Counted from the first letter of the stretch, positions 16,965 through 39,659 are shown. The stretch is 52,716 bases of DNA from an uncultured Thermodesulfobacteriota bacterium (GCA_964580455.1 CAZOKO010000003.1:1-52716), one strand, 5' to 3'. The notes: generated by a model not told the origin, from the sequence alone. A program made the numbers and translations.

Positions 16965-17330
16965 ATGACCAAAATACAAAAACCAAAACAATATGATTTA
17001 GAAGATCGTACGTATGCTTTTGCAAAAAGAGTTCGAGTCTTCGTAAAGAAACTGGTTAAGACAATAGCAAACATTGAAGATGGGAAACAACTCATAAAGG
17101 CTTCTGGTTCCGTAGGCGCTAATTATATCGAAGCTAACGAATCACTAAGCAAGAAAGACTTCATCATGAGGATTAAAATCTGCCGTAAAGAAGCTAAGGA
17201 GAGTAGATATTGGTTGAGACTGATAGACACGCAAGATGATCTGCAATTAATTAACGAACAAAAATATCTTGAACAGGAAGCAACGGAACTAATGAATATT
17301 TTCGGTTCCATATTGCGGAACAGTAAATAA
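16965..17330 (+). CDS. Four-helix-bundle protein (23S rRNA intervening-sequence protein family)
   Basis: 121 aa counted from the internal ATG at 16965. Motifs include LEDRTYAFAKRV, GANYIEANES and KICRKEAKESRYWLRL. The upstream part of the track ORF is repeat DNA overlapping the previous gene. Confidence 0.8.
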   Translation: MTKIQKPKQYDLEDRTYAFAKRVRVFVKKLVKTIANIEDGKQLIKASGSVGANYIEANESLSKKDFIMRIKICRKEAKESRYWLRLIDTQDDLQLINEQKYLEQEATELMNIFGSILRNSK

Positions 17331-20480: not shown

Positions 20481-20670
20481 TGTTTCCTTATTGGTTAGCT
20501 CGGGTACTCGTTACTCGGTTGCGCTGCTCGCCCAATTAAACAAATTCGAAATTCAAATGTTCAAAACTTTTTTGTTCTTGTCATTTGAATTTTGATCATT
20601 CGGATTTGGGATATATATCCTGCTTCCTGTACCCTGACCCCTACACCCTATTCTTCTATCTAGCAGCACC

Positions 20671-21770: not shown

Positions 21771-22847
21771 ATGTGTCAACCAGGGAAAAGAAGCTCTTCT
21801 AAATTAACCCCCCTTATTTACCTTATCTCTTTTTTTTCAATAATCAGCTTTGCTCAATCTTCTTTAGCTTTTGATGAGCAAAATTGCCTGCTCTGTCATA
21901 AATATCGGGGATTGAGCTATATAGATGAAGACGGGCAACTCATGCTTCTCTACATCACCGAACCCAGTTATTTGAATAGCCCCCACGCACTACCCAAATG
22001 CGGAGATTGCCACACAGATGTAGAGGGGTTTCCTCATGAATCAGTGAAGAAAGTCGATTGCCTTGTACAATGCCATGTAAGAGAGCCTTTTTCAGAAAAG
22101 TTATTTTCCCATAAAAAATCAGCAGATTTACTGAATGATAGTGTTCACTCCAGAAGGGATAAAGACGGCAATCTAAAGGAACATCAGGAAGATTTGCCAG
22201 ATTGTAAAACCTGTCATAATGATCCGCTATACAGACCTTTCTACTACTTTAAATCTGCACATGCTGGCATATCGAAAAAGGTAATAGGTCGCTGCCTTGT
22301 CTGCCACGATGATGATATTTATGTAAAGAAATTTTACAGCCATTTTTCCTCCCGCATGCAAAAACTGAGACCTCCTAAAGAACTGGTTGCTATGTGTGGT
22401 AAATGCCATGAAGATGACGAGGTCATGCAACGCCATGGCCTTCCAAATGTGTTGCATTCCTACAGGGAGACTTATCATGGCAAGGCTGTTCATTTTGGTG
22501 ATGAGTGGACTCCAGACTGTCTGGATTGTCATGTGAAAGCAGGAGAGTCTGTACATCTTATGCACGCAAAAGACGATCCCAGATCATCCGTCCATAAAGA
22601 CGAAGTATTTAACACCTGTTCGACTCTCGACTGTCATCCAGGAACTGACTCAAAGCTGGATGGTTTTAATCCTCACCCATCACCAGACATAAAAAAGAAT
22701 CCCGTTATATTTTTTGCTACACTCTTTTTCTATTTTCTCACTACCATTACCATTGTTTTTGTCATGCTAATGATTATCCTGGACATAGCAAGAAGATTAT
22801 TCCCTAATTGTTCTCTTTTTCCACTGAAAAGTAGAGATAATAAATGA
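21771..22847 (+). CDS. Membrane-anchored multiheme cytochrome c (6 CXXCH plus conserved CX3CH and CX4CH), module 1 component A
   Basis: The signal peptide runs from the internal ATG at 21771; the track ORF begins at 21723. It has a C-terminal TM helix. Its stop overlaps the next start (ATGA). Paralog of 34001..35140. Confidence 0.8.
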   Translation: MCQPGKRSSSKLTPLIYLISFFSIISFAQSSLAFDEQNCLLCHKYRGLSYIDEDGQLMLLYITEPSYLNSPHALPKCGDCHTDVEGFPHESVKKVDCLVQCHVREPFSEKLFSHKKSADLLNDSVHSRRDKDGNLKEHQEDLPDCKTCHNDPLYRPFYYFKSAHAGISKKVIGRCLVCHDDDIYVKKFYSHFSSRMQKLRPPKELVAMCGKCHEDDEVMQRHGLPNVLHSYRETYHGKAVHFGDEWTPDCLDCHVKAGESVHLMHAKDDPRSSVHKDEVFNTCSTLDCHPGTDSKLDGFNPHPSPDIKKNPVIFFATLFFYFLTTITIVFVMLMIILDIARRLFPNCSLFPLKSRDNK

Positions 22848-24514
22848 GCGCTGAACTAAGAATCAAAGAAAGCAATGAGCAAAGATTTTTCCTTCGCTTA
22901 ACACTCAATCAGAGAATACAACATATTGTTCTTATTCTCTCCTTCAGCGTCCTTGCCCTTACCGGCATGCCGATGAAATACTTTGATAGCTCATGGGGCG
23001 CATCTCTCTTCGCTCTCTTTGGAGGGATCGTATGGGCGCCTATCATCCATCGCATTGCAGCAATTGTTATCCTCCTGATGTTTTTCTATCACGTAATCTA
23101 TGTTTTAGTCATAGCCTATACAAATTTTATCCGACCTTTAAAAAAAGAGAATCGATGCACCTTCCGCAATATTATTAAATCCATCTTAAGCATGCCCATG
23201 ATACCCAATGCGGCGGATCTGCGTGAGGCGAAAGAAATACTTATGTATTATTTTTTCATAAGCAGTAAAAAACCTGTTATGGGACGCTTTGGGGTCAGGG
23301 AAAAATTCGGTTACTGGGCCGTCTTTTGGGGTATGCCTATACTGGGAATCACTGGATTTTTCCTCTGGGCAGAAGGCATTGTTACACGATATCTGCCCGG
23401 CATTGTCTTAAACATCTCTTATATTGCGCACAGTGACGAAGCCCTGCTGGCAGTGACAGTTATCTTTATCTGGCATATCTACAACACCCATATAAGTCTA
23501 TCAAAATTCCCTATGGGTATGTCCTGGTTTACCGGTTATGAAAACGAAGAAGAAATGATGGAAGAACACTACAATTTCTATCTTGATACAATGAAAGAAG
23601 AAGGGCTAGCTGCTGAAATCAAAGAGGAGAATAAATACCCTTTTGAAGGTCAGAGTCTCCTCGTCAGAATTTTCAAGAAGACCTATCTGGTTTCCCTCAT
23701 GTTTATTTTAGCACTGGCCACTATTTTTATCGCTCTTACAATCTATCGGACAACCTTCGGGCACCTCCCCCCTCCTCGTGAAACTACAACACCGGAGAAG
23801 AAGTCTGTAAAACTGGAGGAGTTTTTAGAAAAGATTGTTTTGGAAGATAAAGATAAGGAAAGATTGTATCGGGGATACCGAATCACTATGGAAAAAGAGA
23901 TTAAAGGTTACTATCATAATATTGCTCTTAAAGTTGAACCGGATAAACGCTCACACTGCATTATATGCCATGGTGATTTTCCTCATGGTGAAACCAAGCA
24001 CATCCGCGCATTTCTGAATATGCACAACTTCTATTTGGCCTGTGAAACCTGCCACATCCGTCCTGAAGATGAAGCAGAAACATTTGTTTATCGATGGTAT
24101 GATATTGACAGCGGAGATATCATGCAGAATCCGGTGATTGATATTAAATCGACTGATGAATTAGACATCAAGTTAATCCCCTGTCGTATAGAAAAAGGGA
24201 AACTCATAAGAGCGGATTCAGAAGAGAGGATTAAGATTACCAAAGATTTTATCCGTAAAGTTGAAAAGGATGAGATTAGTTTTGAAGAGGAAAAGAAGAT
24301 ATTGAAAAAAATACATGATCGGATCAACCCTCAATCCATCCAGTGTCAGGAGTGTCACACCAGAGATAAACTTATTTTACCTCTTGCGGAAATTGGCTAT
24401 TCTGAACGGAGGATTGGATATATATGCAGTGACGAAATCAGCAGGATGATTCGCGATTACGAATTGTATTCCTCTCCAACTCACTTGAAAGCATGGGAGG
24501 GAAAGGAACAATAA
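22844..24514 (+). CDS. Fusion protein: N-terminal membrane cytochrome b (FdnI/HydC/PhsC-like), a TM helix, and a C-terminal triheme c domain; module 1 component B
   Basis: The N-terminal ~240 aa align with 35137..35859 (RIQH...polytopic TM). The C-terminal ~270 aa align with 35891..36700 (CIICH, CETCH, CQECH). Confidence 0.8.
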   Translation: MSAELRIKESNEQRFFLRLTLNQRIQHIVLILSFSVLALTGMPMKYFDSSWGASLFALFGGIVWAPIIHRIAAIVILLMFFYHVIYVLVIAYTNFIRPLKKENRCTFRNIIKSILSMPMIPNAADLREAKEILMYYFFISSKKPVMGRFGVREKFGYWAVFWGMPILGITGFFLWAEGIVTRYLPGIVLNISYIAHSDEALLAVTVIFIWHIYNTHISLSKFPMGMSWFTGYENEEEMMEEHYNFYLDTMKEEGLAAEIKEENKYPFEGQSLLVRIFKKTYLVSLMFILALATIFIALTIYRTTFGHLPPPRETTTPEKKSVKLEEFLEKIVLEDKDKERLYRGYRITMEKEIKGYYHNIALKVEPDKRSHCIICHGDFPHGETKHIRAFLNMHNFYLACETCHIRPEDEAETFVYRWYDIDSGDIMQNPVIDIKSTDELDIKLIPCRIEKGKLIRADSEERIKITKDFIRKVEKDEISFEEEKKILKKIHDRINPQSIQCQECHTRDKLILPLAEIGYSERRIGYICSDEISRMIRDYELYSSPTHLKAWEGKEQ

Positions 24515-24568
24515 ACATAAAATTATTGTGATAACTTATATGGTTAATAATCTTTACGGGACTGTAAT

Positions 24569-25489
24569 TTGAGAACTATTGTTTACTCTTTCGTTTTTAT
24601 CTCTTTTCTTATAACCGATTTGCTGCAAGCTGCCGAACTAGAAACTACCACAGCGCTGCCTCTTTTTACCCTGGAATCCAGCCTCCATATGCCAAGCGAT
24701 GTAGCTGTTGGTAAGCAAAATCGCATCTATGTTCTTGATGGCTCCCACGGTCAGGTTAAGGTCTTTAATGATAAGGGTAATTTCATTTTTTCTTTTGGGT
24801 CTAAAGGATCGGGGAAAACTCAGTTAATGAACCCTTTAGGACTTGATGTAGATGATGCAGGTAACGTGTATATTGCTGATTCTGGCAATCACCGTATACA
24901 GATCTTTGACCAGAATGGGAGATGGATAAGTACCTTTAATCTAACAAGGGAAACGGGATTAACCCCCCCTGATCCAACTGATGTAGCCGTTAACCGTGCT
25001 AAGGATCGCTGTTATGTTGTAGACAACGATAACCATAAAATTCTTATGTTCAACAAAACGGGTTCCAAGTTTCTTGGTCAGTGGGGAACCAGAGGAGAAG
25101 TCCTGGGAAAATTCCGTTACCCTTACTTTATCACAGTCAATAAAGAGGGAAACGTAGCAATAGTAGATCTGCTCAATACCCGTGTGCAAGTTTTCAACCC
25201 TGAGGGTAAATTTCTCCATCTAGTCGGCTCCTGGGGAGTTGACCGTGGGAATTTCTACCGTCCCAAGGGAATAGCCATAGACAATAATAACCGAATTTTT
25301 GTAAGTGATAGTGTCCTGGGCGTTGTTCAAATTTTCGATCCTCAGGGAAACTTCTTGTCTGTGGTGGGGAACAAGGAAGGACAAATACTGAGGTTCACGA
25401 CCCCTGTTGGAATCTATGTTGACCATAATTACAGACTCTATGTAGTAGAAATGACAATGGACAGAGTGAGGGTTTTTAAACTTCAATGA
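24569..25489 (+). CDS. Secreted NHL-repeat six-bladed beta-propeller protein, module 1 component C
   Basis: Repeated motifs YVxDxxNHRIQxFxxxGxF. Signal peptide. TTG start. Stop overlaps the next start (ATGA). Confidence 0.85.
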   Translation: MRTIVYSFVFISFLITDLLQAAELETTTALPLFTLESSLHMPSDVAVGKQNRIYVLDGSHGQVKVFNDKGNFIFSFGSKGSGKTQLMNPLGLDVDDAGNVYIADSGNHRIQIFDQNGRWISTFNLTRETGLTPPDPTDVAVNRAKDRCYVVDNDNHKILMFNKTGSKFLGQWGTRGEVLGKFRYPYFITVNKEGNVAIVDLLNTRVQVFNPEGKFLHLVGSWGVDRGNFYRPKGIAIDNNNRIFVSDSVLGVVQIFDPQGNFLSVVGNKEGQILRFTTPVGIYVDHNYRLYVVEMTMDRVRVFKLQ

Positions 25490-28014
25490 ATAATGCAAGA
25501 TACAGATTGTCATGGAACATTTTGATAGCACTCCTTTATACTCTTCTACTATTCATTTTTGCCTACCCTGAAACTTCTAATGCAAGAGTCGCTCCCGGAA
25601 GCAAGGCAGATTCTGCTAAAGAGTGTGCCATCTGCCACTATCGCTGGGTCTATGCCTTCTTTGTAGAACACAGAGATGGGGAGCTGGTTCCATTTCCAGA
25701 AGAATCACCCGTAACTCTAGAAGCAAGATGTTTCTCCTGCCATGACGGTAGTGTGATGGATGACCGCGAAAAAGTTTTCAGTGACAGAGGTCACGAAACA
25801 GGCATCAAGCCTTCGGATAAAGTTAAGGTTCCAGAAGAATTCCCACTCGATGAGGAAGGGAAAATCCAATGCTATACCTGTCATATGCATCATGAATCTC
25901 CTACAGATTCAGGCATGGTGGAAACATGGCTCTTCACAAGATTCTCAAATGAAAACTCAGAGATGTGCAAGATGTGCCATATTGATAAAACTGGTGGGCC
26001 AGAGAAGGGAAACCACTCTATGCAGGCCAGTCCATTTCGAATCCCAAAAGAATTGATTGATCAAGGAGGTCGCCTGGGCACTGATAATCACGTTATCTGT
26101 GAATCATGTCATATAGCACATGGAGGAATGGAAAATAAATATCTCATTCTTCCTACCGAAGATCCTGTTTCTAGATCTGTCCTCTGTGAAGTCTGTCATG
26201 GGAAATACCCAAGTCTAAAAAAAGATAACCTGCTTAAATCCTACTCCCACTCAGTCGACATCAAGCCAGATACTGCCTCTATTCCAGACTCCTGGAGCAA
26301 TGGCACCCCTGTGGTGAAAGGCACAAGGGGAGAAGTGGTCTGTCACACCTGTCATACACCACACAACGCAGTAGATCAAAAAGCTCTTCTTGCTGATGTG
26401 AACGAAAGAGATTCGCTCTGTTTGCAATGTCATTTAATACAGCAAAGTATTGCGGGGACAAAACATGACCTGAAAATCATGGCACCAAAAGGAAAGAATA
26501 TACTTAAACGAAAAGCCAAAGATACCGGTCCTTGCAGTATCTGTCATCTTACCCATCAGGGAACGGGACCCTTTATGTGGGCACGACAATTGGAGGGACA
26601 GGAAGATCCTATGGTGGGAATATGCCAAAGCTGTCATTCAGAGGGAGAATGTGGCGAAGAAGTACCCATGCCCGAATCAAACCATACTATGGGAATAGCA
26701 GCCAAAACTTTTAGAGAGCCGATGGCACTGCCACTTTACACCCCCAAGGGGAAGAAAGACACGCAAGGTGCAATCTACTGTTCCAGTTGCCATAACGCCC
26801 ACCAGTGGGAACCTCTTGATCCAGATAATAGAGGCTCTAAAGATGTTAAAGCTGATATTAATAACAGCTTCTTGCGAGCGACAAATCAGCAATCAGCTCT
26901 TTGCCTTGAATGTCATAAAGAAGAAGAATCAATTGGAGGAACCGACCACGATCTTTCCCACTCTGCACCTGATGAAAAAAACATACTTGATCAATCACCT
27001 GAAGAATCGGGAATATGTGGCACCTGTCATTTAGCTCATGGGGGAGCAGATACCTTCATGTGGGGAAGGGAGTTTAAAGAAGGAAATGAAACAACAATTA
27101 TGGCTCAGCTTTGCCTTGAATGCCACAGCGAAGGAAGTTGCGCTGAAGAGAAACAGATTGGTAAGCACTTTCATCCCATTAACGTAAGATTGAAAAACTC
27201 TTCAGAAATATCACTTCCCCTCTTCTCTCCAGGAGGAGCAGAGAATGATCACGGAATGATTTTTTGTTCAACCTGCCACGACCCGCACCAGTGGAATCCT
27301 GCCAATCCGGAGAAGAAAGGTGAAGATGGAACTCCATCCGATAGTTTCCTGCGCATCGCAAGTTCTGGGAATTCCCCACTTTGCTCTGAGTGCCATCAAA
27401 GCCAAAGTTATATTGAGGGAACCGACCACGACTTAAGAGTAACAGCGCCTGATGAAAAAAACAAGCAGGGTTTGCTCCCTCAAGAATCCGGTTTGTGTGA
27501 GCAATGCCACGCTGTTCATAACTCACCATACCAGTCCTTTATCTGGGGCAAAAATCTGGGACCTTCTACGATTGCAAACTGGAAGGAAGAATTTACTTCA
27601 CAAGACAATTTTATGACAGGTCTTTGTACCAGTTGTCATCTTGAAGGTAAGTGTGGTGGAGCAAAAATTCCTGAGTACGGGCTTCATCCCAACAAAATCT
27701 ACATGGCTATATTACAAGAGAAATCTGATTTAACGGAACAGGGGCAATATGAGAAGTTCATCCATAGATTCCCCCTCTTTACTGATGAGGGCGAAAAATC
27801 TACCGAAGGGAATATTGTCTGCACTACCTGCCATGATGTCCATCTCTGGATTGCCTCTCACCCTCATAAGGGAATAGGTGAGGAAACAGAGGGAGATGCA
27901 ACTAATAGCTTTTTAAGGAAAGGTATTTCCTTTACTTTCTGTGCTAGTTGTCATGGAGAGGAGTCAATTTACCAGTATTTGAATTTCCATTTTTTCAAAG
28001 GACGGAAGAACTAG
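25486..28014 (+). CDS. 20-heme cytochrome c (842 aa), module 1 component D
   Basis: I counted 20 canonical CXXCH motifs. Signal/anchor sequence at the N-terminus. It has an internal ~150-160-aa four-heme repeat unit. Confidence 0.9.
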   Translation: MNNARYRLSWNILIALLYTLLLFIFAYPETSNARVAPGSKADSAKECAICHYRWVYAFFVEHRDGELVPFPEESPVTLEARCFSCHDGSVMDDREKVFSDRGHETGIKPSDKVKVPEEFPLDEEGKIQCYTCHMHHESPTDSGMVETWLFTRFSNENSEMCKMCHIDKTGGPEKGNHSMQASPFRIPKELIDQGGRLGTDNHVICESCHIAHGGMENKYLILPTEDPVSRSVLCEVCHGKYPSLKKDNLLKSYSHSVDIKPDTASIPDSWSNGTPVVKGTRGEVVCHTCHTPHNAVDQKALLADVNERDSLCLQCHLIQQSIAGTKHDLKIMAPKGKNILKRKAKDTGPCSICHLTHQGTGPFMWARQLEGQEDPMVGICQSCHSEGECGEEVPMPESNHTMGIAAKTFREPMALPLYTPKGKKDTQGAIYCSSCHNAHQWEPLDPDNRGSKDVKADINNSFLRATNQQSALCLECHKEEESIGGTDHDLSHSAPDEKNILDQSPEESGICGTCHLAHGGADTFMWGREFKEGNETTIMAQLCLECHSEGSCAEEKQIGKHFHPINVRLKNSSEISLPLFSPGGAENDHGMIFCSTCHDPHQWNPANPEKKGEDGTPSDSFLRIASSGNSPLCSECHQSQSYIEGTDHDLRVTAPDEKNKQGLLPQESGLCEQCHAVHNSPYQSFIWGKNLGPSTIANWKEEFTSQDNFMTGLCTSCHLEGKCGGAKIPEYGLHPNKIYMAILQEKSDLTEQGQYEKFIHRFPLFTDEGEKSTEGNIVCTTCHDVHLWIASHPHKGIGEETEGDATNSFLRKGISFTFCASCHGEESIYQYLNFHFFKGRKN

Positions 28015-28322
28015 CTGTCTATTATAGTCTGAAAACTTAGCAAATCAGTCAAGTTTTACTCAACGGTACAGTTTTGCAAAGGGATACTGGATACAAGATA
28101 CTGGATTCTGGCAAAAGAACGACCAACAGTTTCTATCCAGCATCGCGAAACCTCACCGGTTTAAGTCGAAGCTTTACTGGGAATAATCACAGTGTTCTGA
28201 ATCATATGCTTGACATTTACTCCATTTTTTATTATCAAATACTGTGCCAAACACCAAGAAATGGAAAGGAATATCAATCTGCTAGTTGTAACCAGAACGC
28301 CAAATAAAATGAGAAACAGTCA

Positions 28323-29144
28323 ATGAGAAGGGTAACTTACACAATTCCTTTATTTATAATAGGAATTCTACTTATAACTAGTTTTTTAAGTTGTCAGACT
28401 TCTCCCTCGCACAATGAGAATTCAGATAGCTCTTCAGAGACAACCCTTGCCCCAACACATTTAGTCATTGAAAAAGATCCTGTGACAATGACGCTTGTCC
28501 CTGCCAGAACGTTCAGCATGGGGAACGAAGCAGGAAATGAGGACGAACAACCCGTACACAAAGTATATGTCGATGCATTTTACATAGATACTGCAGAAGT
28601 AACATGTGCACGTTATAACCATTTTTTGAAGGAAACAGGCTATCCTTCTAATCAGCTATGGAATCCGGAATATGACAGACCAGACGACCCTGTGGTAGGA
28701 GTAAACTGGTATGATGCTGTAGCCTTTGCTAAGTGGGCGGGCAAAAGACTCCCTACCGAGGCCGAGTGGGAAAAGGCAGCACGTGGCGGATTGATTGGAG
28801 ATAAATATCCATGGGGGGATGAGATTACTCGTGAAAAGGCAAATTATAATTCTTTCGGAACAACTCTTGTAAAAAGCTATGAACCTAATGGTTACGGTCT
28901 TTATGATATGGCAGGTAATGTTTGGGAATGGTGCCAGGATTGGTACAGCAAAGACTATTACAACACAACTCCTAAGAAAAATCCCCACGGGCCCATGCTT
29001 GGCGAAAGAAAAGTCGTAAGGGGTGGTGCCTGGTATAATAATGAGACAGCTTTGCGGGTGTCTAACCGGCATAGAAGCTACCCTAGTGTAGGAAGCTTTA
29101 ATATTGGATTTAGATGTGTTAAGTCAGTGAAAGATATGAATTGA
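28323..29144 (+). CDS. Formylglycine-generating-enzyme (FGE/SUMF1) family lipoprotein
   Basis: Leader ending in FLSC. Motifs VNWYDAVAFAKWAGKRLPTEAEWEKAARGG, GNVWEWCQDWY, RGGAW and the NIGFRCV C-terminus. Confidence 0.85.
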   Translation: MRRVTYTIPLFIIGILLITSFLSCQTSPSHNENSDSSSETTLAPTHLVIEKDPVTMTLVPARTFSMGNEAGNEDEQPVHKVYVDAFYIDTAEVTCARYNHFLKETGYPSNQLWNPEYDRPDDPVVGVNWYDAVAFAKWAGKRLPTEAEWEKAARGGLIGDKYPWGDEITREKANYNSFGTTLVKSYEPNGYGLYDMAGNVWEWCQDWYSKDYYNTTPKKNPHGPMLGERKVVRGGAWYNNETALRVSNRHRSYPSVGSFNIGFRCVKSVKDMN

Positions 29145-29263
29145 AGGATTTAGAGATTTAGGAATTCAGGGATTGGGGGATTGAAGAATTTAGGAATTAC
29201 AGATAAGAATGGGGTTTCTGATTCCCATCTTCTTTTAATAATACATACGAGATTCGAGATAAT

Positions 29264-31795
29264 ATGTTAGCCAGAAAAAAATTATTTTTCATAATACAAA
29301 TTTCTTTATTTTTGCTTATAGTTTCATCCACACAAGCTGCAACTACAACTACATCTTTAAAGCCCGATTCTGCCAAAGAATGTGCTATCTGCCATTATAT
29401 CTGGGTTGATACCTTTTTTATTGAAAAAAGAAGTAGTGCACTTGCAAATCTTCCTGCTGAACCAACAGTAGCAGATTCTGAAATGTGTTTCTCATGTCAT
29501 GATGGTTCTACTGTAGATTCTCGTAAAAAAATTCATAACGACAGGAAACACCAGTCTGGTATCATCCCCTCTGATAAGGTAAAGATTCCGGAAATCTTTC
29601 CTCTCGATGAAGAAGGAAAGATGAATTGTGCAACCTGTCACAGCGCCCACGGCGTATCAACAGAGCCGGGAATCGAGAAAACAATTTTCTTGAGGACATC
29701 AAATAATAATTCTGAAATGTGTAAGATGTGCCATGTAGATAAAGATGGCGGACCAGAGAAGGGAAATCATCCCATTGATAAAACCACCTTGAAGATCTCC
29801 AAAGATATAACCAGGTATGGTGGCTATATCGGCAATGAGCCTAACCAGGTAATTTGCGAAAGCTGCCATGTGGCTCATGGCGGATTTACTGACAAACGTC
29901 TGGTTTTACCTGTGGATCGTCCAGGTGTATACCCTGTACTTTGCGAGGCATGTCATGGTAAAACACCCGGTCTTAACAAAGATATGAGAAGAAATCAATT
30001 CTCACACAGTGTTGACATTAAACCTGAAAATGCTGAAATTCCTGTCAAGTGGAAAAACGGTAATTCAATCAGATTAGGTCTAAGAGGCGAACTAGTCTGT
30101 GTTTCATGCCATTCCACCCACAGCCCTAAGGTTAAAGAATCTTTTCTCAACGAAAGAAATAACAAAGACTCTCTTTGTTTGCAATGCCATTCATCCCAGG
30201 AAAAACTTATTCGGGATACCAAACACGACCTTGCCCTGATGGCACCAGATGCTAAGAATGTGCTGGATAAAACGGTGTCTCAATCAGGACCCTGCAGTTG
30301 CTGCCATCTCACACACGAGGGAGTAGGACCTTTTATGTGGGCTAGAGAATGGGAAGGTGAAGAAGCGGCTCCTGTTGGCATTTGCAAAAGCTGCCACGCA
30401 AAGGGAGAATGTGCTGAAGAGGTAGCCATTCCTGATACTGGACACCCCATTGGAGTAAAACCTGAGGAAGCGAAGGTGGCAATGGACTTTCCCCTTTTTA
30501 CGGCAACTGGCAAAGAAGATAAGCAAGGTGCAATTTACTGTTCCAGCTGCCATAACACCCACCAATGGGATCCTTTGAACCCTGATGATAAAGGATCTAA
30601 GGATGAAACGGGTGATATCACCAACAGTTTCTTGAGAGCGGCACATCAGGACTCCGTTCTTTGCCTGGGTTGTCATAAAGAAGAATCTGCTATTGAAAAA
30701 ACAGACCATGATCTATCTCACTCTGCACCTGATGAAAAAAACATTCTTGATCAATCTCCTGAAGAATCAGGAATATGTGGAACTTGCCATTTAGCTCATG
30801 GAGGAGCTGAAGCATTCATGTGGGGAAGGGAGCTTATTAAAGAAGGAAATGATACAATTATGGCTCAGCTTTGTATTGAATGCCATAGTGAAGGTAGCTG
30901 CGGTGAAGAGAAATTGATAGGTGAGTACTTCCATCCTGTTAACATGAGCATGGAAGATACTGAAGATATAACATTTCCACTTTTCTTACCAGAGGGAAAG
31001 CAAGACTCTCAAGGCATGGTTTTTTGTTCAACCTGCCATAATCCTCACCAGTGGGATCCCAGTGATCCTGACAAAAAAAGTGAGGATGGAACCCCATCCG
31101 ACAGCTTCCTTCGTCTATCAAGTGCTGTGAATTCTCAACTCTGCTCTGAGTGCCACCAGGATAAACGTTACATTGAGGAAACCGACCACGACTTAAGCAT
31201 AACGGCACCCGATGAAAAAAATAAGAAGGGTTTATCCCCTCAAGAATCTGGCTTATGCGAACAGTGCCATGCTGTTCACAACGCTCAGACCAAAGCTTTC
31301 ATCTGGAACAGAGATTTAGGACCTACTTTAGTTTCACACTGGAAAGAAGAATTCACGAATCCTGAAAACATGATGATAAAACTTTGTACCAGTTGTCACT
31401 CAGAAGATGAGTGTGCTGAGGAACAGGTACCTGAGTATGGACTTCACCCCACTAAACTATACATGGCTCTGCTTCAGGAACGATCCGATTTGATGAGCCA
31501 GGATCAGTATGAGGCATTCATTGATCAATTCCCCATTTTTACCGACGAAGGTGAAAAATCAGTGGGGGGGAATATCGTGTGCACTACCTGTCATGATGCT
31601 CACATCTGGAACGCCCACCATCCCAAGAAGGGATCAGGGGCAGAAATAGAAGGAGATGCCGTCAGCAGCTTTTTGCGAAAGGATATCTCCTTTACCTTCT
31701 GCGCAAGTTGTCATGGGGAGGAGGCACTATATAAATTTAAGTATTTTCACATGATTAAAGGACGAAAGAAAGAATCGACGGAAAAAGAGGATTAA
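29264..31795 (+). CDS. 20-heme cytochrome c (843 aa), paralog of 25486..28014
   Basis: 20 canonical CXXCH motifs at positions collinear with the paralog. Long stretches are identical at the amino-acid level, for example DHDLSHSAPDEKNILDQSPEESGICGTCHLAHGGA. Confidence 0.9.
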   Translation: MLARKKLFFIIQISLFLLIVSSTQAATTTTSLKPDSAKECAICHYIWVDTFFIEKRSSALANLPAEPTVADSEMCFSCHDGSTVDSRKKIHNDRKHQSGIIPSDKVKIPEIFPLDEEGKMNCATCHSAHGVSTEPGIEKTIFLRTSNNNSEMCKMCHVDKDGGPEKGNHPIDKTTLKISKDITRYGGYIGNEPNQVICESCHVAHGGFTDKRLVLPVDRPGVYPVLCEACHGKTPGLNKDMRRNQFSHSVDIKPENAEIPVKWKNGNSIRLGLRGELVCVSCHSTHSPKVKESFLNERNNKDSLCLQCHSSQEKLIRDTKHDLALMAPDAKNVLDKTVSQSGPCSCCHLTHEGVGPFMWAREWEGEEAAPVGICKSCHAKGECAEEVAIPDTGHPIGVKPEEAKVAMDFPLFTATGKEDKQGAIYCSSCHNTHQWDPLNPDDKGSKDETGDITNSFLRAAHQDSVLCLGCHKEESAIEKTDHDLSHSAPDEKNILDQSPEESGICGTCHLAHGGAEAFMWGRELIKEGNDTIMAQLCIECHSEGSCGEEKLIGEYFHPVNMSMEDTEDITFPLFLPEGKQDSQGMVFCSTCHNPHQWDPSDPDKKSEDGTPSDSFLRLSSAVNSQLCSECHQDKRYIEETDHDLSITAPDEKNKKGLSPQESGLCEQCHAVHNAQTKAFIWNRDLGPTLVSHWKEEFTNPENMMIKLCTSCHSEDECAEEQVPEYGLHPTKLYMALLQERSDLMSQDQYEAFIDQFPIFTDEGEKSVGGNIVCTTCHDAHIWNAHHPKKGSGAEIEGDAVSSFLRKDISFTFCASCHGEEALYKFKYFHMIKGRKKESTEKED

Positions 31796-31801
31796 TCTAT
31801 A

Positions 31802-33412
31802 ATGCTTGCTGCAAAAACCATAAAATGGCTCATAATATTAATTATAACGCTAGTTTTAGGCTGCTTGTTAATAACTCCCAGCATCTCCACGGACAATGAA
31901 GAAGCTACTGTCCTTTATGAGATTCGTTCTCCGGAAGAGATTATTAACCCTCATTTTACTGGTAAAGACTGTGATACATGCCACGATGAGGCGCCAGAAC
32001 CCGGCGATAGCGATCTCCGATTGAAGTTTGGAGGAGATGACATAGCCATGTGCAACTCCTGCCACGAGGCCGAACAGGTTAAGGGAGAGATTCATCCGGT
32101 AGGAATTATTCCACCAGAAGGGAATTCTATCAATATTCCTGATACGTTCCCTCTCTATGAAGGGAAAGTTACCTGCAGAACTTGCCATGATGTATATCTC
32201 CAGTGTAAAGCAAAACCTTCCGTACAATTTGAAAACATAGATTTCTTATGGGGAGCACCCTACAAAAAAACTACGGATTTCTGTTTCCGCTGCCATAAAA
32301 TAGAAGATTACAAAAAGACCAATCCCCATGAACAATTAGACAAGGAAGGCAATATTTTAGAGGAACGATGCCTATATTGTCATCAAACGCTGCCCGACCC
32401 CTACACCGTGTCAGGCATAGAAAACGTTGGTTTTAGAACTGAAACGTCCACCTTCTGTATAGCGTGTCACGGGGCGCAAGAAACACTTCATCCTGCCAAT
32501 GCAAATCATATGCTTGCTCCTCCGCAAGACATGTTAACAGCAATTGAAGCATCCGAGGATAAGTACGGTGTCATTTTACCTCTTTTAAAAGGAGACGTAT
32601 TTTGTGGAACTTGTCACAATCCCCACGAAAAAGGAGTTATCAAGAGAGAGGAGGCAACAAAAGGTTCCGAGGCAGAATATCAAGTAAGACTCGACTGGTC
32701 GTATGATCTTTGTATTGCCTGTCACATTGAGAAAGAAGATTTATCCGCCAGAGAGATCGATATCGATATCCAGGACAAAGATCTAATCCTCACCACAAAG
32801 GGTGAGGACATACCCTCTTACCACAAATCCTTTATAGAAAAAAAGTGCAGGGCATGCCATATTATCACCCGGGAATCTCCAGAACGTCCGATTGTTTACA
32901 AGATGTGTTTTCAGGCAGATTGCCATGATGCATCCCTTATCGGAGGAACATTCAAACACAGCGATGCCTTAAAAGGCAATTGTCTTCTATGCCACAGCCA
33001 GCATGGGAGTCAATATGGTGCTCACATTGTTAATGACCAGCAGAAACTCTGCAAGGCGTGCCACCCCCTCTTAGGCAGAATGGAAGAAGAAGGTGAAAAG
33101 GAAGAGGAGGAAGGAGAGGACTTTCACGACTATTACCTAGCTCTTTTCCGAAAGCTTGTTCCAGACCAGGAAGTAACCTGCAGTTACTGTCATGGAGAAA
33201 ACCATAGTGAGAAAGTTTACGAAAACGGAATCGTTACCTGTTACCAGTGTCACAACTATACCAAGCAGTTAATTAAGGGCAAGAAGGGAAAACCAAAAAA
33301 TATTCACGAAACATTCATACGATTCGTAAGAGATAACTGTACCTACTGCCATGATCCCCATAGCAGTTCTTACCCGCATTTATTGAAGGAAGAACCGGAA
33401 TCGTATAAATAA
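31802..33412 (+). CDS. Multiheme cytochrome c (14 CXXCH plus one CX4CH), 536 aa
   Basis: N-terminal TM/signal sequence. I counted the motifs directly. Acidic EEEGEKEEEEGE insert near the C-terminus. Confidence 0.85.
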   Translation: MLAAKTIKWLIILIITLVLGCLLITPSISTDNEEATVLYEIRSPEEIINPHFTGKDCDTCHDEAPEPGDSDLRLKFGGDDIAMCNSCHEAEQVKGEIHPVGIIPPEGNSINIPDTFPLYEGKVTCRTCHDVYLQCKAKPSVQFENIDFLWGAPYKKTTDFCFRCHKIEDYKKTNPHEQLDKEGNILEERCLYCHQTLPDPYTVSGIENVGFRTETSTFCIACHGAQETLHPANANHMLAPPQDMLTAIEASEDKYGVILPLLKGDVFCGTCHNPHEKGVIKREEATKGSEAEYQVRLDWSYDLCIACHIEKEDLSAREIDIDIQDKDLILTTKGEDIPSYHKSFIEKKCRACHIITRESPERPIVYKMCFQADCHDASLIGGTFKHSDALKGNCLLCHSQHGSQYGAHIVNDQQKLCKACHPLLGRMEEEGEKEEEEGEDFHDYYLALFRKLVPDQEVTCSYCHGENHSEKVYENGIVTCYQCHNYTKQLIKGKKGKPKNIHETFIRFVRDNCTYCHDPHSSSYPHLLKEEPESYK

Positions 33413-33491
33413 AAATAAGAAAAAGAACTGTTTTAAAATGTAGCTAGACGTAAAGGCGCCGCTGTGCTATTTAAATAAACCACATACTGTC

Positions 33492-33511
33492 ATTCCCGCG
33501 AAAGCGGGAAT
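33492..33511. repeat. GAAA-loop hairpin repeat (left flank of the GIY-YIG cassette)
   Basis: ATTCCCGC-GAAA-GCGGGAAT. The context GTCATTCCCGCGAAAGCGGGAATCCATAA matches 5303-5331 apart from a compensatory base-pair change. Confidence 0.65.
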
Positions 33512-33556
33512 CCATAAGCATGTATTATAAAGGATTATTAATCAAAAAAATGATTG

Positions 33557-33850
33557 ATGGTTGATCACTTATACAGTGTTTATATCTTAGCAAGTAAAAG
33601 AAATGGCACACTGTATATCGGTGTTGCTGCAAATTTGATTAAGAGAGTCTATGAACATAAAAATCATTTGGTTGATGGCTTTACCAAAAAATATAATATT
33701 CATAATTTGGTCTATTATGAAACAACAGAAGACATTAGCAGTGCAATAAGAAGAGAAAAACAAATTAAAAAATGGAAAAGGAAGTGGAAAATAGAACTAA
33801 TTGAGAAGAAAAACCCAAATTGGAGAGATCTTTATCATGACTTGATATAG
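33557..33850 (+). CDS. GIY-YIG nuclease family protein (small stand-alone type)
   Basis: YSVYILASKRNGTLYIGVAANLIKRVYEHK...REKQIKKWKRKWK is the classic UPF0213/GIY-YIG pattern. About 97 aa. Confidence 0.8.
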   Translation: MVDHLYSVYILASKRNGTLYIGVAANLIKRVYEHKNHLVDGFTKKYNIHNLVYYETTEDISSAIRREKQIKKWKRKWKIELIEKKNPNWRDLYHDLI

Positions 33851-33893
33851 ATTCCTGCTGGAGTTTATCCCGTACTAGATACGGGGCAGGAAT
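33851..33893. repeat. Nested hairpin repeat (right flank of the GIY-YIG cassette)
   Basis: Outer stem ATTCCTGC (33851-58) / GCAGGAAT (33886-93) encloses CCCGTA-CTAGA-TACGGG. The same ATTCCTGC/GCAGGAAT stem occurs at 5349-5368. Confidence 0.65.
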
Positions 33894-34000
33894 GACAATG
33901 ATATAGATAGTCACAAATTCACACTATCTAACTTTCAAATTCAGTTCTTTTTTAACCACACATTCGTTCGACTGTTATTTAAAATTAGGGGTGACAATTC

Positions 34001-35140
34001 ATGAAAGCTCGAACTCTCTTATTTAAATTTTTACTAACTGTAATGACCATGGCAACTTCGCTTTATTTTATCCCCTGCCTCATGGCGGCAGATGTAGAAA
34101 ACTGTGATCTCTGCCATAAATATTCAGGGCTTGGAAGAATCGATGAATCAGGCAAGAAACACCTCTATTATGTGAATGATGTATTATGCCAGCAATCTGT
34201 TCACAGAAAGATTCGCTGCAAGGAATGCCATAGTGACATTGAGAAGTACCCTCATCCCAATCCTGAAGAAGTGGATTGCTCCACAGTATGCCACCTTGTT
34301 GACCCTTCAACAGACAATAAATTTTCACATGCCAATATGATTGAAGGGTATGATCTGAGTGTTCATGGAAAAGGCCCTGAAGACAATCCCAAAGAACACC
34401 CGGAAGACCTCCCTTCCTGCACTTACTGTCATGAAAACCGCACCTACCAGCCGGTAAGTGGGCTGGCTGACGAGCATAGAGGAGTTGCTCAGGAAATCCT
34501 GGACCGATGTCTGGGCTGCCACACGGATGAACAATGGACCCGGTACTTCTACAATCACTTCACCCATCGTTTGCATCAGCGTCGTTCTTCCGAAAGAATG
34601 GTAGAATTGTGTACATCATGTCATGAGGATGATGAGATGATGGAACGTCATGGCTTAATTGTAACTGGTACTTTTCATGATACCTTCCACTGGCAGGCTA
34701 TAAAATATGGAGATCCTAATGCCCCTAATTGCATTACATGTCATGCTCCTGTCGGATATTCATCACACGAGATCATGCCCAAAGATGATCCCCTCTCTGC
34801 CATCCATAAAGACAACCTGGTTCGAACCTGCAGCAACCAGGGCGGTCTCCAGACATGCCATCCCAACGCCACCACTGCTTTTGCCCAGGGCAGAATTCAC
34901 CCCACACGATACAAAACGGGTGTCTTTGAAACCAAAATGAGATCCTTCCAGTCTTTATTTGCCAGTCCGGCAAGTGCAGAATTGACTGGACTGGAGTATT
35001 ACCAGCAACTACTTCTTCAACTCATAAAGTTTTTTTATATGATACTCATAGGCGGTCTTATAAGTTTCATGATACTGCATCAAATACTGGATTATTTTGC
35101 CACCAGAAGAGAAATTAAAAAAGGAGGACTGCACCAATGA
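34001..35140 (+). CDS. Membrane-anchored multiheme cytochrome c (6 CXXCH plus CX3CH and a long-spacer CXnCH), module 2 component A
   Basis: Signal peptide and C-terminal TM helix. Collinear with 21771..22847. ATGA overlap with the next gene. Confidence 0.8.
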   Translation: MKARTLLFKFLLTVMTMATSLYFIPCLMAADVENCDLCHKYSGLGRIDESGKKHLYYVNDVLCQQSVHRKIRCKECHSDIEKYPHPNPEEVDCSTVCHLVDPSTDNKFSHANMIEGYDLSVHGKGPEDNPKEHPEDLPSCTYCHENRTYQPVSGLADEHRGVAQEILDRCLGCHTDEQWTRYFYNHFTHRLHQRRSSERMVELCTSCHEDDEMMERHGLIVTGTFHDTFHWQAIKYGDPNAPNCITCHAPVGYSSHEIMPKDDPLSAIHKDNLVRTCSNQGGLQTCHPNATTAFAQGRIHPTRYKTGVFETKMRSFQSLFASPASAELTGLEYYQQLLLQLIKFFYMILIGGLISFMILHQILDYFATRREIKKGGLHQ

Positions 35141-35859
35141 ACGGAGACAAAGAAAGTTGGACAATCGGTGAACCCGAATCGTATCTTCCCCATAAGGAGA
35201 AGTATTATATCCGGCTTAACCTTACTGAACGGATCCAGCACCATCTTGTCTGGACCACCTTTGTAACCCTCGCTATAACAGGATTTATGGTAGAATTCCC
35301 TGAAGACTGGCTATCCCTTTTGGGTTCTCATAAAGAAACTGTTTTCTACTATCGAGGGTTACTTCACAGGATTGCCGCTGTAGTCATGACTGCAAATCTC
35401 TTCTATCAGGCATGGTATATTACGCTCGCAAAACCAGGTAGAGGTTATATTGTCGACATGATTCCCAGACTCAAGGATGCCAAAGATTTCTATCAAAACA
35501 TGTGCTATTACTTGAGACTGACCGACCAAAAACCCCTTTTTGACCGATTCAATTACAAAGAGAAGCTGGAATACTGGACAGGCTGGATAGGCAATATTAT
35601 CATTACAGTAACCGGGTTTTTCCTCTGGTTTCCAAAATACTTTCCCAAATTTGTTTTCGACCTTTCTATTCTACTACATACCATGGAAGCAATCCTGGCC
35701 TCTTGTGCCATCATGGTATGGCATTTTTACGAGGTTCACCTAAAACCAGGTAAGTTCCCTATGTCTAGAATATGGCTGGATGGGAAAATTCCCGAACATG
35801 AACTTGAGGAAGAACATCCGCTTGAATATCAACGTATTAAAGAGGCTGAGATCAGCTAA
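35137..35859 (+). CDS. Membrane cytochrome b (FdnI/HydC/PhsC-like), module 2 component B1
   Basis: 240 aa, polytopic. RIQHHLVW and other conserved His residues. Aligns to the N-terminal half of 22844..24514. Confidence 0.8.
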   Translation: MNGDKESWTIGEPESYLPHKEKYYIRLNLTERIQHHLVWTTFVTLAITGFMVEFPEDWLSLLGSHKETVFYYRGLLHRIAAVVMTANLFYQAWYITLAKPGRGYIVDMIPRLKDAKDFYQNMCYYLRLTDQKPLFDRFNYKEKLEYWTGWIGNIIITVTGFFLWFPKYFPKFVFDLSILLHTMEAILASCAIMVWHFYEVHLKPGKFPMSRIWLDGKIPEHELEEEHPLEYQRIKEAEIS

Positions 35860-35890
35860 AAACCGTTGTTTGATCAACATGAGGTTATAA

Positions 35891-36700
35891 ATGATGAATA
35901 AGACACCAAATCCATCTTTAATTTTACATATGATATATAACTTACTTGGATTTCTATTCCTGTTATTTATCATTGTGAGTGTAGCATCCCTTGCTAAATT
36001 CCTCTATTTCCCCTCACGCGATTTAGCTATATCAAAAGATATACCACCAGACAAATTTTCTAAAACGATAAGGAAAACTGTGGGGGCAGGTCATTTTCAC
36101 ATTTTAGACAAAACTGTATATACCGACGTGGAAAACGCTCCAATATGCTTGCAATGCCACGGAAATTTTTGTCATGTCAAATCCGAGAAGCTAAGATCGT
36201 TTTACAATATGCACACTTTCTTCCTGGCTTGTGAAACCTGTCACATTAGAAAAAAAGAAGGGGAAGATATCACATTTAAATGGTTTGATGACAAAACCGG
36301 TGAAATCATTACAGAGCTTAAGGGAGAAAATGGAAATTTTGGTGCCAAGATCGTTCCTGCAAAGGGTGGAGATGGGGAGGAACTTAAACGACTGGATGAA
36401 TTCCCTGAAGACAAGAAGGCCCTTGATTTTATAAAAAATAGAGATACATATACCGAGGATGAAAAGAAAACCTTCATAGAAGTATGCATGAAGAAACACA
36501 TTTCTGAAAAAGCAATTGAATGTGAAGAATGTCACCAGAAGAATGGTTATTTTGACTACAAAGCTCTTGGCTATGATCCGGTTCGCTCGGCTGAACTATC
36601 GCGCATTGAAATCGTCCAGATGTCCAAAGATTATGATGAATTCTATTTGCCGACCATGTTTGACCCAAACATAGTTGGTGGAGAAGGTGGTGGGAGTTAG
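35891..36700 (+). CDS. Single-TM triheme cytochrome c, module 2 component B2
   Basis: N-terminal TM helix. Motifs CLQCH, CETCH and CEECH. Aligns to the C-terminal half of 22844..24514 (for example FYNMHTFFLACETCHIR versus FLNMHNFYLACETCHIR). Confidence 0.8.
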   Translation: MMNKTPNPSLILHMIYNLLGFLFLLFIIVSVASLAKFLYFPSRDLAISKDIPPDKFSKTIRKTVGAGHFHILDKTVYTDVENAPICLQCHGNFCHVKSEKLRSFYNMHTFFLACETCHIRKKEGEDITFKWFDDKTGEIITELKGENGNFGAKIVPAKGGDGEELKRLDEFPEDKKALDFIKNRDTYTEDEKKTFIEVCMKKHISEKAIECEECHQKNGYFDYKALGYDPVRSAELSRIEIVQMSKDYDEFYLPTMFDPNIVGGEGGGS

Positions 36701-36950
36701 ATAATACTGGATGCTGGATAAGGCAATTTAGAGATTAAGGAATTTAGGAATTGCGGATTTTGGATTGCGGAGCCGTGGGATAGTAAATGCTGGAGTGATG
36801 GGGTAAACGAATGCGGGTTGCGTTGCTACAGGCTGAATGCTGGAAACTGGATGTCTGATACTGGATACTAAATGCAAGATACAATATTCAGGACTTAATC
36901 AATAAGATTTTTTACTAATTCCTCAATGCCTTAATTCCTAAATTATCAAT
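36701..36950. repeat. Tract of degenerate oligomer repeats (CTGGATxCTGGAT and GGAATTNAGG types)
   Basis: Examples are ACTGGATGCTGGATAAGG, TTAGAGATTAAGGAATTTAGGAATTGCGGATTTTGGATTGCGG, CTGGATGTCTGATACTGGATACTAAATGC and TTAATTCCTAAATT. Related tracts occur at 11221-11251, 28078-28150, 29145-29210 and 44641-44690. Confidence 0.6.
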
Positions 36951-36974
36951 CTTTTGTATAATGGAGGTTTTTCT

Positions 36975-37913
36975 TTGTACCTTATGTATCGATTACTACA
37001 TAGTGTTCTCACGGTTTCACTTTTTGCGTTTACTCCAGTTGCAAATGCACAGGAAGTTTCTGTCCCTATCTTCAGGGCTCAACCCCTCCTTACCATTCAA
37101 CATAGTTTTAGACAGCCCAGTGATGTGGTTGTTGGAAATAACAAAAAAGTTTACGTTCTGGACGGAGTCAACAATAAGATAAAGGTTTTTAACCTTCAAG
37201 GTACCTACCTCTTCTCCTTTGGGGGAACTGGAAAAGGCAAAGGGAAATTCAATTTCCCATTGGGAATAGGTATAGATAAAAATGACCGGATTTATGTGGC
37301 TGACTCAGGTAACCACAGGGTTCAGATTTTTAACTCTGACGGAGCATATCTATCTCAGTTTACAACGAACACCGATAAAGGGAAACCATCCGATCCAACA
37401 GATGTTGTGGTAAACAGCAAATTAAAAACATGCTATGTTGTTGATAATGACAATCACAGGATTATCCTCTATGACCTGAAGAAAAATACAATAATAAACA
37501 TCCAGGGAACAATGGGGATGGGAAAGAAGGAATTTCGTTTCCCCTTTTTAATCGATATAAATCAGGAAGGGAATCTTTACATTGTTGAGGTAATCAACGC
37601 CAGAGTCAAGGTTCTTGACCCAGAAGGAAACTATGTTACTAACATTGGAGGTTGGGGGGTAGAAAAAGGAGAGTTTTACAGACCCAAAGGGGTGGCAATT
37701 GATTCTAAAAACAGAGTATTTGTAAGTGATAGTTATCTTGGAGTCATCCAGGTGTTCGATCAGGATGGGAAATTTTTATCTGTTCTTGGAGATAATAAAG
37801 GCAATATCTTAAAATTCGAAACACCAACCGGCCTCTTCATTGATAAGAAAATGAGGCTGTATGTTGTAGAGATGCTCGCTGATAGAGTAAAAGTCCTTCG
37901 TTTAAAAGATTAA
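36975..37913 (+). CDS. Secreted NHL-repeat beta-propeller protein, module 2 component C
   Basis: Paralog of 24569..25489. My preferred start is the TTG at 36975, 7 nt after GGAGG. The track ORF starts at 36954, and an ATG at 36984 is also possible. Confidence 0.85.
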   Translation: MYLMYRLLHSVLTVSLFAFTPVANAQEVSVPIFRAQPLLTIQHSFRQPSDVVVGNNKKVYVLDGVNNKIKVFNLQGTYLFSFGGTGKGKGKFNFPLGIGIDKNDRIYVADSGNHRVQIFNSDGAYLSQFTTNTDKGKPSDPTDVVVNSKLKTCYVVDNDNHRIILYDLKKNTIINIQGTMGMGKKEFRFPFLIDINQEGNLYIVEVINARVKVLDPEGNYVTNIGGWGVEKGEFYRPKGVAIDSKNRVFVSDSYLGVIQVFDQDGKFLSVLGDNKGNILKFETPTGLFIDKKMRLYVVEMLADRVKVLRLKD

Positions 37914-39480: not shown

Positions 39481-39491
39481 AAATGATAATT

Positions 39492-39640
39492 TCAAAAAAA
39501 GTCACTAACTAGACGGCACAGTAAGAAGCTCCAGATGCAAGGCGCGCGAATCTTTAGGAATGAGGCGTACTTAAGAGTACGTCGGAATGACTAAAGAAGA
39601 AGCGCAACACAGCAGATGGACTTTTTACGAAGCCGTCAAA
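39492..39640. repeat. Intergenic repeat element between ccsB and ccsA
   Basis: Contains the hairpin GGCGTACT-TAAG-AGTACGTC (39564-39583). It also contains the 14-mer GGACTTTTTACGAA (39618-39631), which is identical to 5388-5401. Confidence 0.55.
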
Positions 39641-39659
39641 CATAAAAGGAGAAGCAAGG

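Follow-up and report, generated by a model that had tools for sequence, protein, structure and literature searches.

A 52,716-nucleotide stretch of DNA from an uncultured Thermodesulfobacteriota bacterium (GCA_964580455.1 CAZOKO010000003.1:1-52716), called the window below, carries two sets of genes for a module of five parts: a membrane-anchored octaheme c-type cytochrome (A), a di-heme cytochrome b (B1), a triheme c-type cytochrome (B2), an NHL beta-propeller (C) and a 20-heme cytochrome (D). The module is widespread, conserved and unnamed, and is partly covered by one transcriptomic study. Each set probably encodes an inner-membrane quinone:multiheme-cytochrome oxidoreductase of the Cbc type that is coupled to a periplasmic heme wire.

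Open reading frames (ORFs) were taken from the listing of the window and translated, domains were assigned with Pfam and NCBIfam, and paralogy was assessed by pairwise BLASTP. Set 1 comprises A, B, C and D, and set 2 comprises D', A', B1', B2' and C', as follows.

21771-22847 (the ORF also opens at 21723), + strand: A, octaheme c-type cytochrome with a Sec signal and a C-terminal transmembrane (TM) anchor (set 1)
22844-24514, + strand: B, FdnI-type di-heme cytochrome b (4 TM helices) fused to a fifth TM helix and a periplasmic triheme domain (set 1)
24569-25489, + strand: C, secreted six-bladed NHL beta-propeller (set 1)
25486-28014, + strand: D, soluble periplasmic cytochrome with 20 CXXCH motifs (set 1)
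29264-31795, + strand: D', paralogue of D with 20 CXXCH motifs (set 2)
34001-35140, + strand: A', anchored octaheme cytochrome (set 2 subtype)
35137-35859, + strand: B1', FdnI-type di-heme cytochrome b (set 2)
35891-36700, + strand: B2', triheme cytochrome with 3 CXXCH motifs and an N-terminal TM anchor (set 2)
36954-37913, + strand: C', secreted six-bladed NHL propeller with NHL-type matches in NCBIfam (set 2)

A and A' are 37% identical (E=3e-75), B shares 31% identity with B1' (E=8e-34) and 31% with B2' (E=1e-26), C and C' are 47% identical (E=1e-103), and D and D' are 60% identical (E=0). These similarities are far above chance, and by this measure the sets are true but old paralogues. A preliminary description of this DNA had reported two collinear paralogous sets at these coordinates, which the ORFs, motifs and BLASTP alignments bear out. 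It had also read ATGA overlaps at 22844 (A/B) and 25486 (C/D) as translational coupling; both overlaps are present, and a third occurs at 35137 (A'/B1'). Per set, the heme count comes to about 31 of the c type and 2 of the b type.

Scanning GTDB, with each species represented by one genome, produced 437 matching stretches. The counts given below refer to the best 80 loci, whose six-frame ORFs were searched with the window proteins; many incomplete loci end at contig ends. The hosts belong to Thermodesulfobacteriota (Desulfobacterota), Nitrospirota/Thermodesulfovibrionia, Nitrospinaceae, Gammaproteobacteria (Sideroxydans, Gallionellaceae, Sulfurimicrobium, Candidatus (Ca.) Thiodiazotropha and Sedimenticola), Deferribacter (Deferribacterota) and Verrucomicrobiota, and include a Fibrobacteria metagenome-assembled genome. 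The gene order A-B1-B2-C-D recurs in most loci and in at least six phyla. Adjacency of A to B1 was found in 101 cases, of B1 to B2 in 100, of A to a fused B in 19, of B2 or fused B to C in 66, and of C to D in 62, with gaps inside the module that are short or overlapping. An NHL gene is present in 71 of the 80 loci, in agreement with the earlier view of the propeller as a constant partner, and a cytochrome with at least 14 hemes in 61. The gene-neighborhood check that had been proposed thus finds A, B, C and D occurring together with strong synteny.

This conservation bears on the simplest alternative, which is that the genes lie in a cytochrome-rich genomic island and do not form a functional unit. 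Cytochrome genes often pile up in such genomes, and in the window a GIY-YIG gene is inserted between a 15-heme cytochrome gene (E) and A'. However, incidental clustering is contradicted by the order shared among 80 loci in at least six phyla, by gene fusions and by stop/start overlaps, and we give it hardly any credence.

Duplication is normal for this module: at least two sets are found in 38 of the 80 loci, with two to four A-type genes in each. When the A family is clustered, A of the window falls in the main subtype and A' in a second, with 51-54% identity within subtypes and 35% between them, and both subtypes occur together in 16 loci. Because the subtypes are old and co-occur, the two sets are ancient paralogues that travel together rather than products of a recent local duplication. 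Identity to relatives is 42-55% for A and 30-49% for B, one close relative at 70% excepted.

Sequence and predicted fold place B1 among the four-helix cytochromes b of the FdnI type, which bind two b hemes. B and B1' score 31.1 and 47.2 bits with PF01292 and both pass its gathering cut-off (30.1). The full length of B1' aligns with Escherichia coli FdnI (1KQF chain C; E=2e-7), all four histidines that bind the b hemes coincide, and H27, H69, H196, H211 and the three CXXCH motifs are invariant in 20 B homologues. The only significant Foldseek match of an AlphaFold2 model of B was 1KQF_C (probability 1.0, template-modeling score 0.72 on the target). Homologues bear uninformative database names such as "formate dehydrogenase subunit gamma", "cytochrome C" or "hypothetical". 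In all 80 loci the neighbors of the cytochrome b are c-type cytochromes and not catalytic subunits of formate dehydrogenase or hydrogenase, and B and B1' score 36-58 bits with TIGR01583 (58 for B1'), under the cut-off of 115.85. Thus, B1 is not a true formate dehydrogenase gamma subunit.

Past its fourth helix, B continues with a charged-rich segment of about 55 residues, a fifth hydrophobic helix and a domain with three invariant CXXCH motifs; B2' is this triheme domain placed behind an N-terminal helix. By the helix topology of B and B2', both parts of c type lie in the periplasm, where their hemes must be attached. The triheme family is small but genuine: among 1.84 billion proteins it makes up 358 clusters at 50% identity. 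Its members stand alone, are joined to a cytochrome b, or form part of A+B fusions. The B fusion itself has 120 database relatives, including proteins of about 900 residues that join A, B1 and B2 in that order. These natural fusions (c8-b-c3) keep every motif, and their order is topologically consistent.

With its start at 21771, A has a canonical signal peptide, and a hydrophobic helix lies at its C-terminus. It carries six CXXCH motifs, one CX3CH and one motif of the CX4-8CH form, here CX4CH. In a family alignment, these eight heme motifs and eight further histidines, which are candidate distal ligands, are 100% conserved among 113 homologues, so the six or seven hemes originally counted in A are corrected to eight. 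Because all eight motifs and the eight extra histidines are invariant and the protein ends in a helix, the sequence indicates that A is a bis-histidine octaheme cytochrome tethered to the membrane. The C-terminal anchor itself contains no histidine.

D has a Sec signal, 20 CXXCH motifs and 49 histidines. Its hemes are probably all bis-histidine ligated: the 45-49 histidines found in D and D' suffice for such ligation of all 20 hemes, which argues that D is a carrier and not a catalyst. Three tandem units of about 160 residues, each with four hemes, are 34-42% identical to one another (z at least 40 against shuffled sequences). Homologues of D have 16, 18, 20, 24 or 28 hemes, and the four-heme steps are what gain or loss of repeat units would be expected to produce. 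C has a signal peptide, matches PF01436 with 105.8 bits, and aligns with the six-bladed NHL domains of TRIM71, Thin and Brat with E values down to 6e-51 (TRIM71). Outside the structural Gly/Pro/Asp pattern, its conserved polar residues are H156, R205, W222, R231, K233 and D247.

It can be imagined that C and D together are a periplasmic enzyme or electron store instead of a wire. The propeller would then bind a dissolved or colloidal substrate such as sulfur species, metal chelates or humics, D would feed or buffer electrons, and A and B would serve as the quinone link only. C and D are the tightest soluble pair in the module, the polar residues of C listed above extend beyond the structural pattern, most loci have no porin nearby, and pairs of NHL and multiheme genes recur in the Uet/Occ and D. 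ferrophilus clusters discussed below. However, histidines enough for every heme of D leave no obvious open site, no cofactor motif was seen in C, and the cited papers only hypothesize a scaffold role for NHL proteins in such clusters. Moreover, heme number that shifts by fours fits a wire of adjustable length. We therefore consider an enzyme or store improbable.

Expression of part of the module has been reported. In a study of sulfide-driven iron-oxide respiration by Desulfurivibrio alkaliphilus (Nature 2025), a cluster from DA_2136 to DA_2141 was described that encodes a cytochrome with 9 hemes (DA_2136), a porin (DA_2137), cytochromes with 7 (DA_2138) and 8 hemes (DA_2139), a cytoplasmic-membrane protein with 8 motifs (DA_2140) and a "CbcL-like" cytoplasmic-membrane protein with 3 hemes (DA_2141). 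All were upregulated ~8-fold (log2 ~3) with ferrihydrite relative to nitrate (Nature 2025). DA_2141 (WP_013164303.1) shares a 90% cluster with our database match P0075, and cluster membership, locus order and identity mark DA_2140 as the orthologue of A and DA_2141 as that of B. At this locus (L087), an NHL gene and a 20-heme gene follow at 11749-15245, with starts that overlap the preceding stops. Compared over full length with their counterparts in the window, the D. alkaliphilus proteins show identities of 37% for A, 38% for B, 33-38% for C and 30-31% for D, and the porin-cytochrome set that adjoins the module is a different one from that in the window. The published list ends at DA_2141, and the NHL and 20-heme partners are not discussed there (Nature 2025). 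Thus, to judge from the annotation and transcript data on DA_2140 and DA_2141, orthologues of A and B have already been proposed as a quinol-to-periplasm step of extracellular respiration.

These results qualify the earlier impression that neither the five-part composition nor its duplication corresponds to a recognized complex. We found no publication that names or defines the five-part module, its NHL partner or its 20-heme partner. However, the module occurs in as many as 437 stretches, multiple sets are not peculiar to the window, and the "CbcL-like" inner-membrane step of iron-oxide respiration had been reported.

The mechanism that we favor is as follows. Electron exchange between B1 and the quinone pool would take place at a site that, by analogy with FdnI, may lie near the cytoplasmic face. 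Beside B1 on the periplasmic side, the C-terminal helix would tether A, and the N-terminal helix, or the fifth helix of a fusion, would tether B2. Electrons would pass to, or come from, the soluble 20-heme protein D. The propeller C, which is made together with D, may act as a partner for docking or assembly. The chain in this organism would most likely go on to the adjacent MtrAB-like pair (GSU2203/GSU2204) and to the 15-heme cytochrome E, so that the whole route would link the menaquinone pool and the cell exterior. The approximately 100 c hemes encoded here would be matured by ResB and CcsA. The FdnI alignment, the 1KQF_C match, the topology, the fusions and the synteny support the logic suggested at the outset, in which a cytochrome b hands electrons to anchored c hemes and these hand them to a long heme chain. 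By analogy with ImcH, CbcL and CbcBA in Geobacter, the two sets probably serve different potentials, partners or directions.

A stronger version of this proposal holds that A, B1, B2, C and D are one anchored complex of about 33 hemes. Its 20-heme arm would span the periplasm and, with no need for diffusible carriers, wire the quinone pool directly to outer-membrane conduits or periplasmic enzymes. The structural hub would be the NHL propeller, the length of the wire would be set in four-heme steps, and the paralogues would be tuned to different potentials or directions. We regard this version as possible but doubtful.

The same parts could also work in reverse, as a cytochrome c:menaquinone reductase that resembles in function Qrc, or formate dehydrogenase-N if cytochromes took over from FdnGH. 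Periplasmic dehydrogenases or extracellular donors would supply electrons by way of the heme network, menaquinone would be reduced at the cytoplasmic face, and a redox loop would conserve energy. FdnI natively works inward, and B1 keeps its ligand pattern; an FdhA/FdhB pair that probably contains selenocysteine and is exported by twin-arginine translocation (TAT) lies 12 kb upstream without a membrane subunit; and the gammaproteobacterial hosts named above are iron or sulfur oxidizers. On the other hand, the D. alkaliphilus orthologues are induced while the organism reduces ferrihydrite, and established bioenergetics makes it unfavorable for high-potential donors such as Fe(II) to reduce quinone against the membrane potential. 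No sequence feature fixes the direction. Given that FdnI carries electrons inward and that the hosts include both oxidizers and reducers, either direction of flow is conceivable. We consider an inward reductase rather unlikely.

Several observations weigh against the quinone-linked wire that we favor. Many hosts oxidize sulfur or iron, so outward electron flow would not be general. The 20-heme and NHL genes are absent from the 13 listed ferrihydrite-induced cytochromes of D. alkaliphilus, despite their overlap with DA_2141 (Nature 2025). An MtrB-like porin lies within 10 kb in only 8 of the 80 loci, which indicates that the module is not intrinsically tied to that conduit and that its core is an inner-membrane and periplasmic device joined to varied outer partners. 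The AlphaFold2 models are of moderate quality, with a predicted local distance difference test score of 66 for B and 72 for A. The structure search suggested earlier was run on them, and B found its match, but the model of A matched no structure in Foldseek, and the triheme part of B was poorly modeled and likewise unmatched. The c-type parts therefore have no fold-level assignment. Sequence searches of the Protein Data Bank with A, B and D returned nothing useful. Scans for sigma-70 promoters and terminators found no excess over shuffled sequence and are uninformative, and the joining of the parts into a physical complex is presumed.

Known systems resemble the module in part; Geobacter CbcL and CbcBA were compared with it by their described architecture, and for orthology to CbcL the one link is the "CbcL-like" label of DA_2141. 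CbcL (Cbc1, GSU0274) of Geobacter sulfurreducens, a proposed menaquinol oxidase for extracellular respiration, likewise joins a multiheme c domain to an inner-membrane di-heme cytochrome b of the FdnI/HydC type. However, CbcL is a single chain in which six TM helices come after a part with nine c hemes, whereas in the module the 8-heme A is a separate protein with a helix to itself, and a b domain of four helices is succeeded by an extra helix and a triheme domain. The NHL and 16-28-heme partners are, moreover, constant in the module. CbcBA (Cbc5, GSU0590-0594) pairs a periplasmic multiheme cytochrome, anchored by a TM helix at its C-terminus, with a di-heme cytochrome b that has four helices and is a protein of its own; the system is conserved across phyla, and some lineages have b-c fusions. 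There, three of the b-heme histidines come from CbcB and the fourth from the C-terminal helix of the 7-heme CbcA, whereas A has 8 hemes and B1 holds all four histidines. The partners of Cbc5 are CbcC/D/E instead of an NHL propeller and a 20-heme protein, and its operon depends on sigma-54 and BccR. The window has sigma-54 activators upstream, but no match to the -24/-12 consensus precedes A, and matches across the window are below chance. Identity with Cbc5 was rejected because partners and heme counts differ. Thus, the module may work like CbcL or CbcBA while failing their definitions in heme numbers, helix count, histidine distribution and partners.

FdnI (1KQF chain C) is the only solved relative and has the same four-helix fold with four histidines for two b hemes, but the periplasmic partners in the module are c-type cytochromes rather than the molybdo-iron-sulfur subunits FdnG and FdnH. 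The decaheme cytochrome and MtrB/PioB-type porin of the window resemble MtrCAB/MtoAB and GSU2203-GSU2204, and the order E-MtrA-MtrB in relatives mirrors mtrCAB. The Shewanella Mtr system uses CymA and small periplasmic carriers, in place of which we propose an A-B complex and a 20-heme protein, and the porin here has a CXXCH motif.

NHL propeller genes adjoin large multiheme cytochrome genes in the Uet/Occ clusters of Ca. Tenderia, Gallionella and Ca. Dechloromonas occultata and in DFE_448-451/461-465 of D. ferrophilus, with system II maturation nearby. Unlike the module, these clusters have c7-type trihemes, a peptidyl-prolyl isomerase (PPIase) and their own porin, and Occ also has a CcoN-like protein. 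The papers on the Uet/Occ and D. ferrophilus clusters describe no FdnI-type cytochrome b, anchored octaheme or triheme. Uet/Occ clusters are marked by the undecaheme UetJ/OccP, c7 trihemes, a PPIase and the UetC porin alongside NHL proteins. Identity with them was rejected, as the window lacks the 11-heme protein, PPIase and c7-type soluble triheme and has only the NHL-multiheme pairing in common with them; the D. ferrophilus clusters were set aside because no cytochrome b is described there. In loci of Sideroxydans and Ca. Thiodiazotropha (L036, 18267-21401; L045, 589-3335), the module stands beside an NHL gene with an 11-heme cytochrome gene after it. This pair resembles UetI/UetJ (OccP) and suggests that NHL and multiheme genes form a reusable two-gene cassette. 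Finally, PCC3 and PCC4 (He et al. 2017) combine a periplasm-crossing cytochrome of 21-27 hemes with a b-type inner-membrane protein. That protein has five helices and two HX13H motifs of the ferric-reductase type, and there is no NHL protein or anchored c-type pair; because it is not of the FdnI type, identity with PCC3/PCC4 was rejected.

Around and between the two sets lie the following genes.

20671-21588, - strand: MtrA-like decaheme cytochrome (GSU2203 family), divergent from A, with 10 CXXCH motifs
18648-20480, - strand: MtrB/PioB-like outer-membrane porin (GSU2204 family) with one CXXCH motif
28323-29144, + strand: FGE-like gene, lipoprotein with the FGE-sulfatase fold (PF03781, 214 bits; lipobox FLSC)
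31802-33412, + strand: E, cytochrome with 14 CXXCH motifs and 1 CX4CH, thus 15 hemes; probable lipoprotein (lipobox LVLGC)
33554-33850, + strand: GIY-YIG gene, 98 residues, stand-alone nuclease
38077-40499, + strand: ResB and CcsA/CcsB of system II cytochrome c maturation, after C'

The pair at 18648-21588, directly upstream of A, was absent from the preliminary description. The decaheme cytochrome exceeds the cut-offs of NF041028 (366.7 bits; 325) and TIGR03508 (DmsE/MtrA; 262.7 bits; 192.2). The porin passes PF11854 (43.2 bits; cut-off 23) and scores 279.8 bits with NF041027, under the cut-off of 350. The latter family is named "GSU2204 family CXXCH-containing (seleno)protein", and it is unusual for an outer-membrane barrel to carry a heme-binding motif. 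In the window the motif is CAQCH at residue 185, and each of the eight relatives with such a porin keeps it. Among the closest relatives (L009, L014, L017, L018 and L058), a multiheme cytochrome (MHC) gene opens the series MHC-FGE-A-B-C-D-E-MtrA-MtrB-small protein, all in one direction. A 198-residue protein with a signal- or lipoprotein-like N-terminus and no family match (17694-18290, - strand) comes next after the porin, both in the window and in at least four relatives (L009, L011, L014 and L017).

The 14-15-heme cytochrome, FGE-like gene and GIY-YIG gene that had been noted between the sets were all found, at 28323-33850. E, like A, D and D', is assigned to multiheme families by Pfam and NCBIfam. 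Its N-terminal half is homologous to a 7/8-heme gene that precedes A in many loci and is 37% identical to DA_2139; adjacency of E to A was found in 17 cases. An FGE gene is present in 14 of the 80 loci, in the closest clade, immediately upstream of A or D'. The best NCBIfam matches of the FGE-like protein, to PorK/GldK and EgtB, are weak. The unit FGE-D'-E-A'-B1'-B2'-C' is intact in locus L015, where A' directly follows E and the GIY-YIG gene is missing. In the window this gene occupies a 589-bp gap between E and A', and its absence from L015 indicates an insertion into the operon. The maturation genes are supported by PF05140 (341 bits), PF01578 (192 bits) and TIGR03144 (292.6 bits; cut-off 187.6).

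Farther upstream, a 7-heme cytochrome gene (15761-16867, + strand) is of a kind that precedes the FGE gene in relatives (MHC368 to FGE, 9 cases). It is followed at ~16965-17330 (+ strand) by a small gene of the "23S rRNA intervening sequence protein" family (PF05635, according to the annotation precomputed for L001). On the - strand are a TAT-exported molybdopterin formate dehydrogenase (6396-9410), a 4Fe-4S subunit (5632-6378) and an FdhE-like gene (9643-10575). An in-frame TGA at codon 189, in the motif HQARI-U-HSATV, divides the formate dehydrogenase into two ORFs, and the enzyme thus probably contains selenocysteine. Because no FdnI-type membrane subunit adjoins it, it may feed the periplasmic cytochrome network. 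A PAS/sigma-54 activator gene (3618-4979) and genes for a HAMP histidine kinase and a sigma-54 response regulator (11516-14522, with the regulator at 11516-12886) are also on the - strand, an arrangement reminiscent of how BccR controls cbcBA.

Multiheme cytochromes diverge fast, which makes it difficult to predict extracellular electron transfer from a genome. Across distant lineages, parts of the module are unusually conserved, its gene order is fixed in at least six phyla, and its hosts range over iron and sulfur oxidizers, sulfur disproportionators and iron reducers. If the module is a quinone-linked wire across the periplasm, it would supply the little-understood step from inner to outer membrane outside Shewanella and Geobacter, and would explain why NHL propellers recur beside giant cytochromes. 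It would also provide a set of marker genes and, in D. alkaliphilus, a cultured organism for tests, in which part of the module already responds to iron oxide. Should the parts form a single complex of about 33 hemes, they would represent a distinct class of respiratory complex shared across phyla, and a genomic marker for long-range periplasmic electron transfer.

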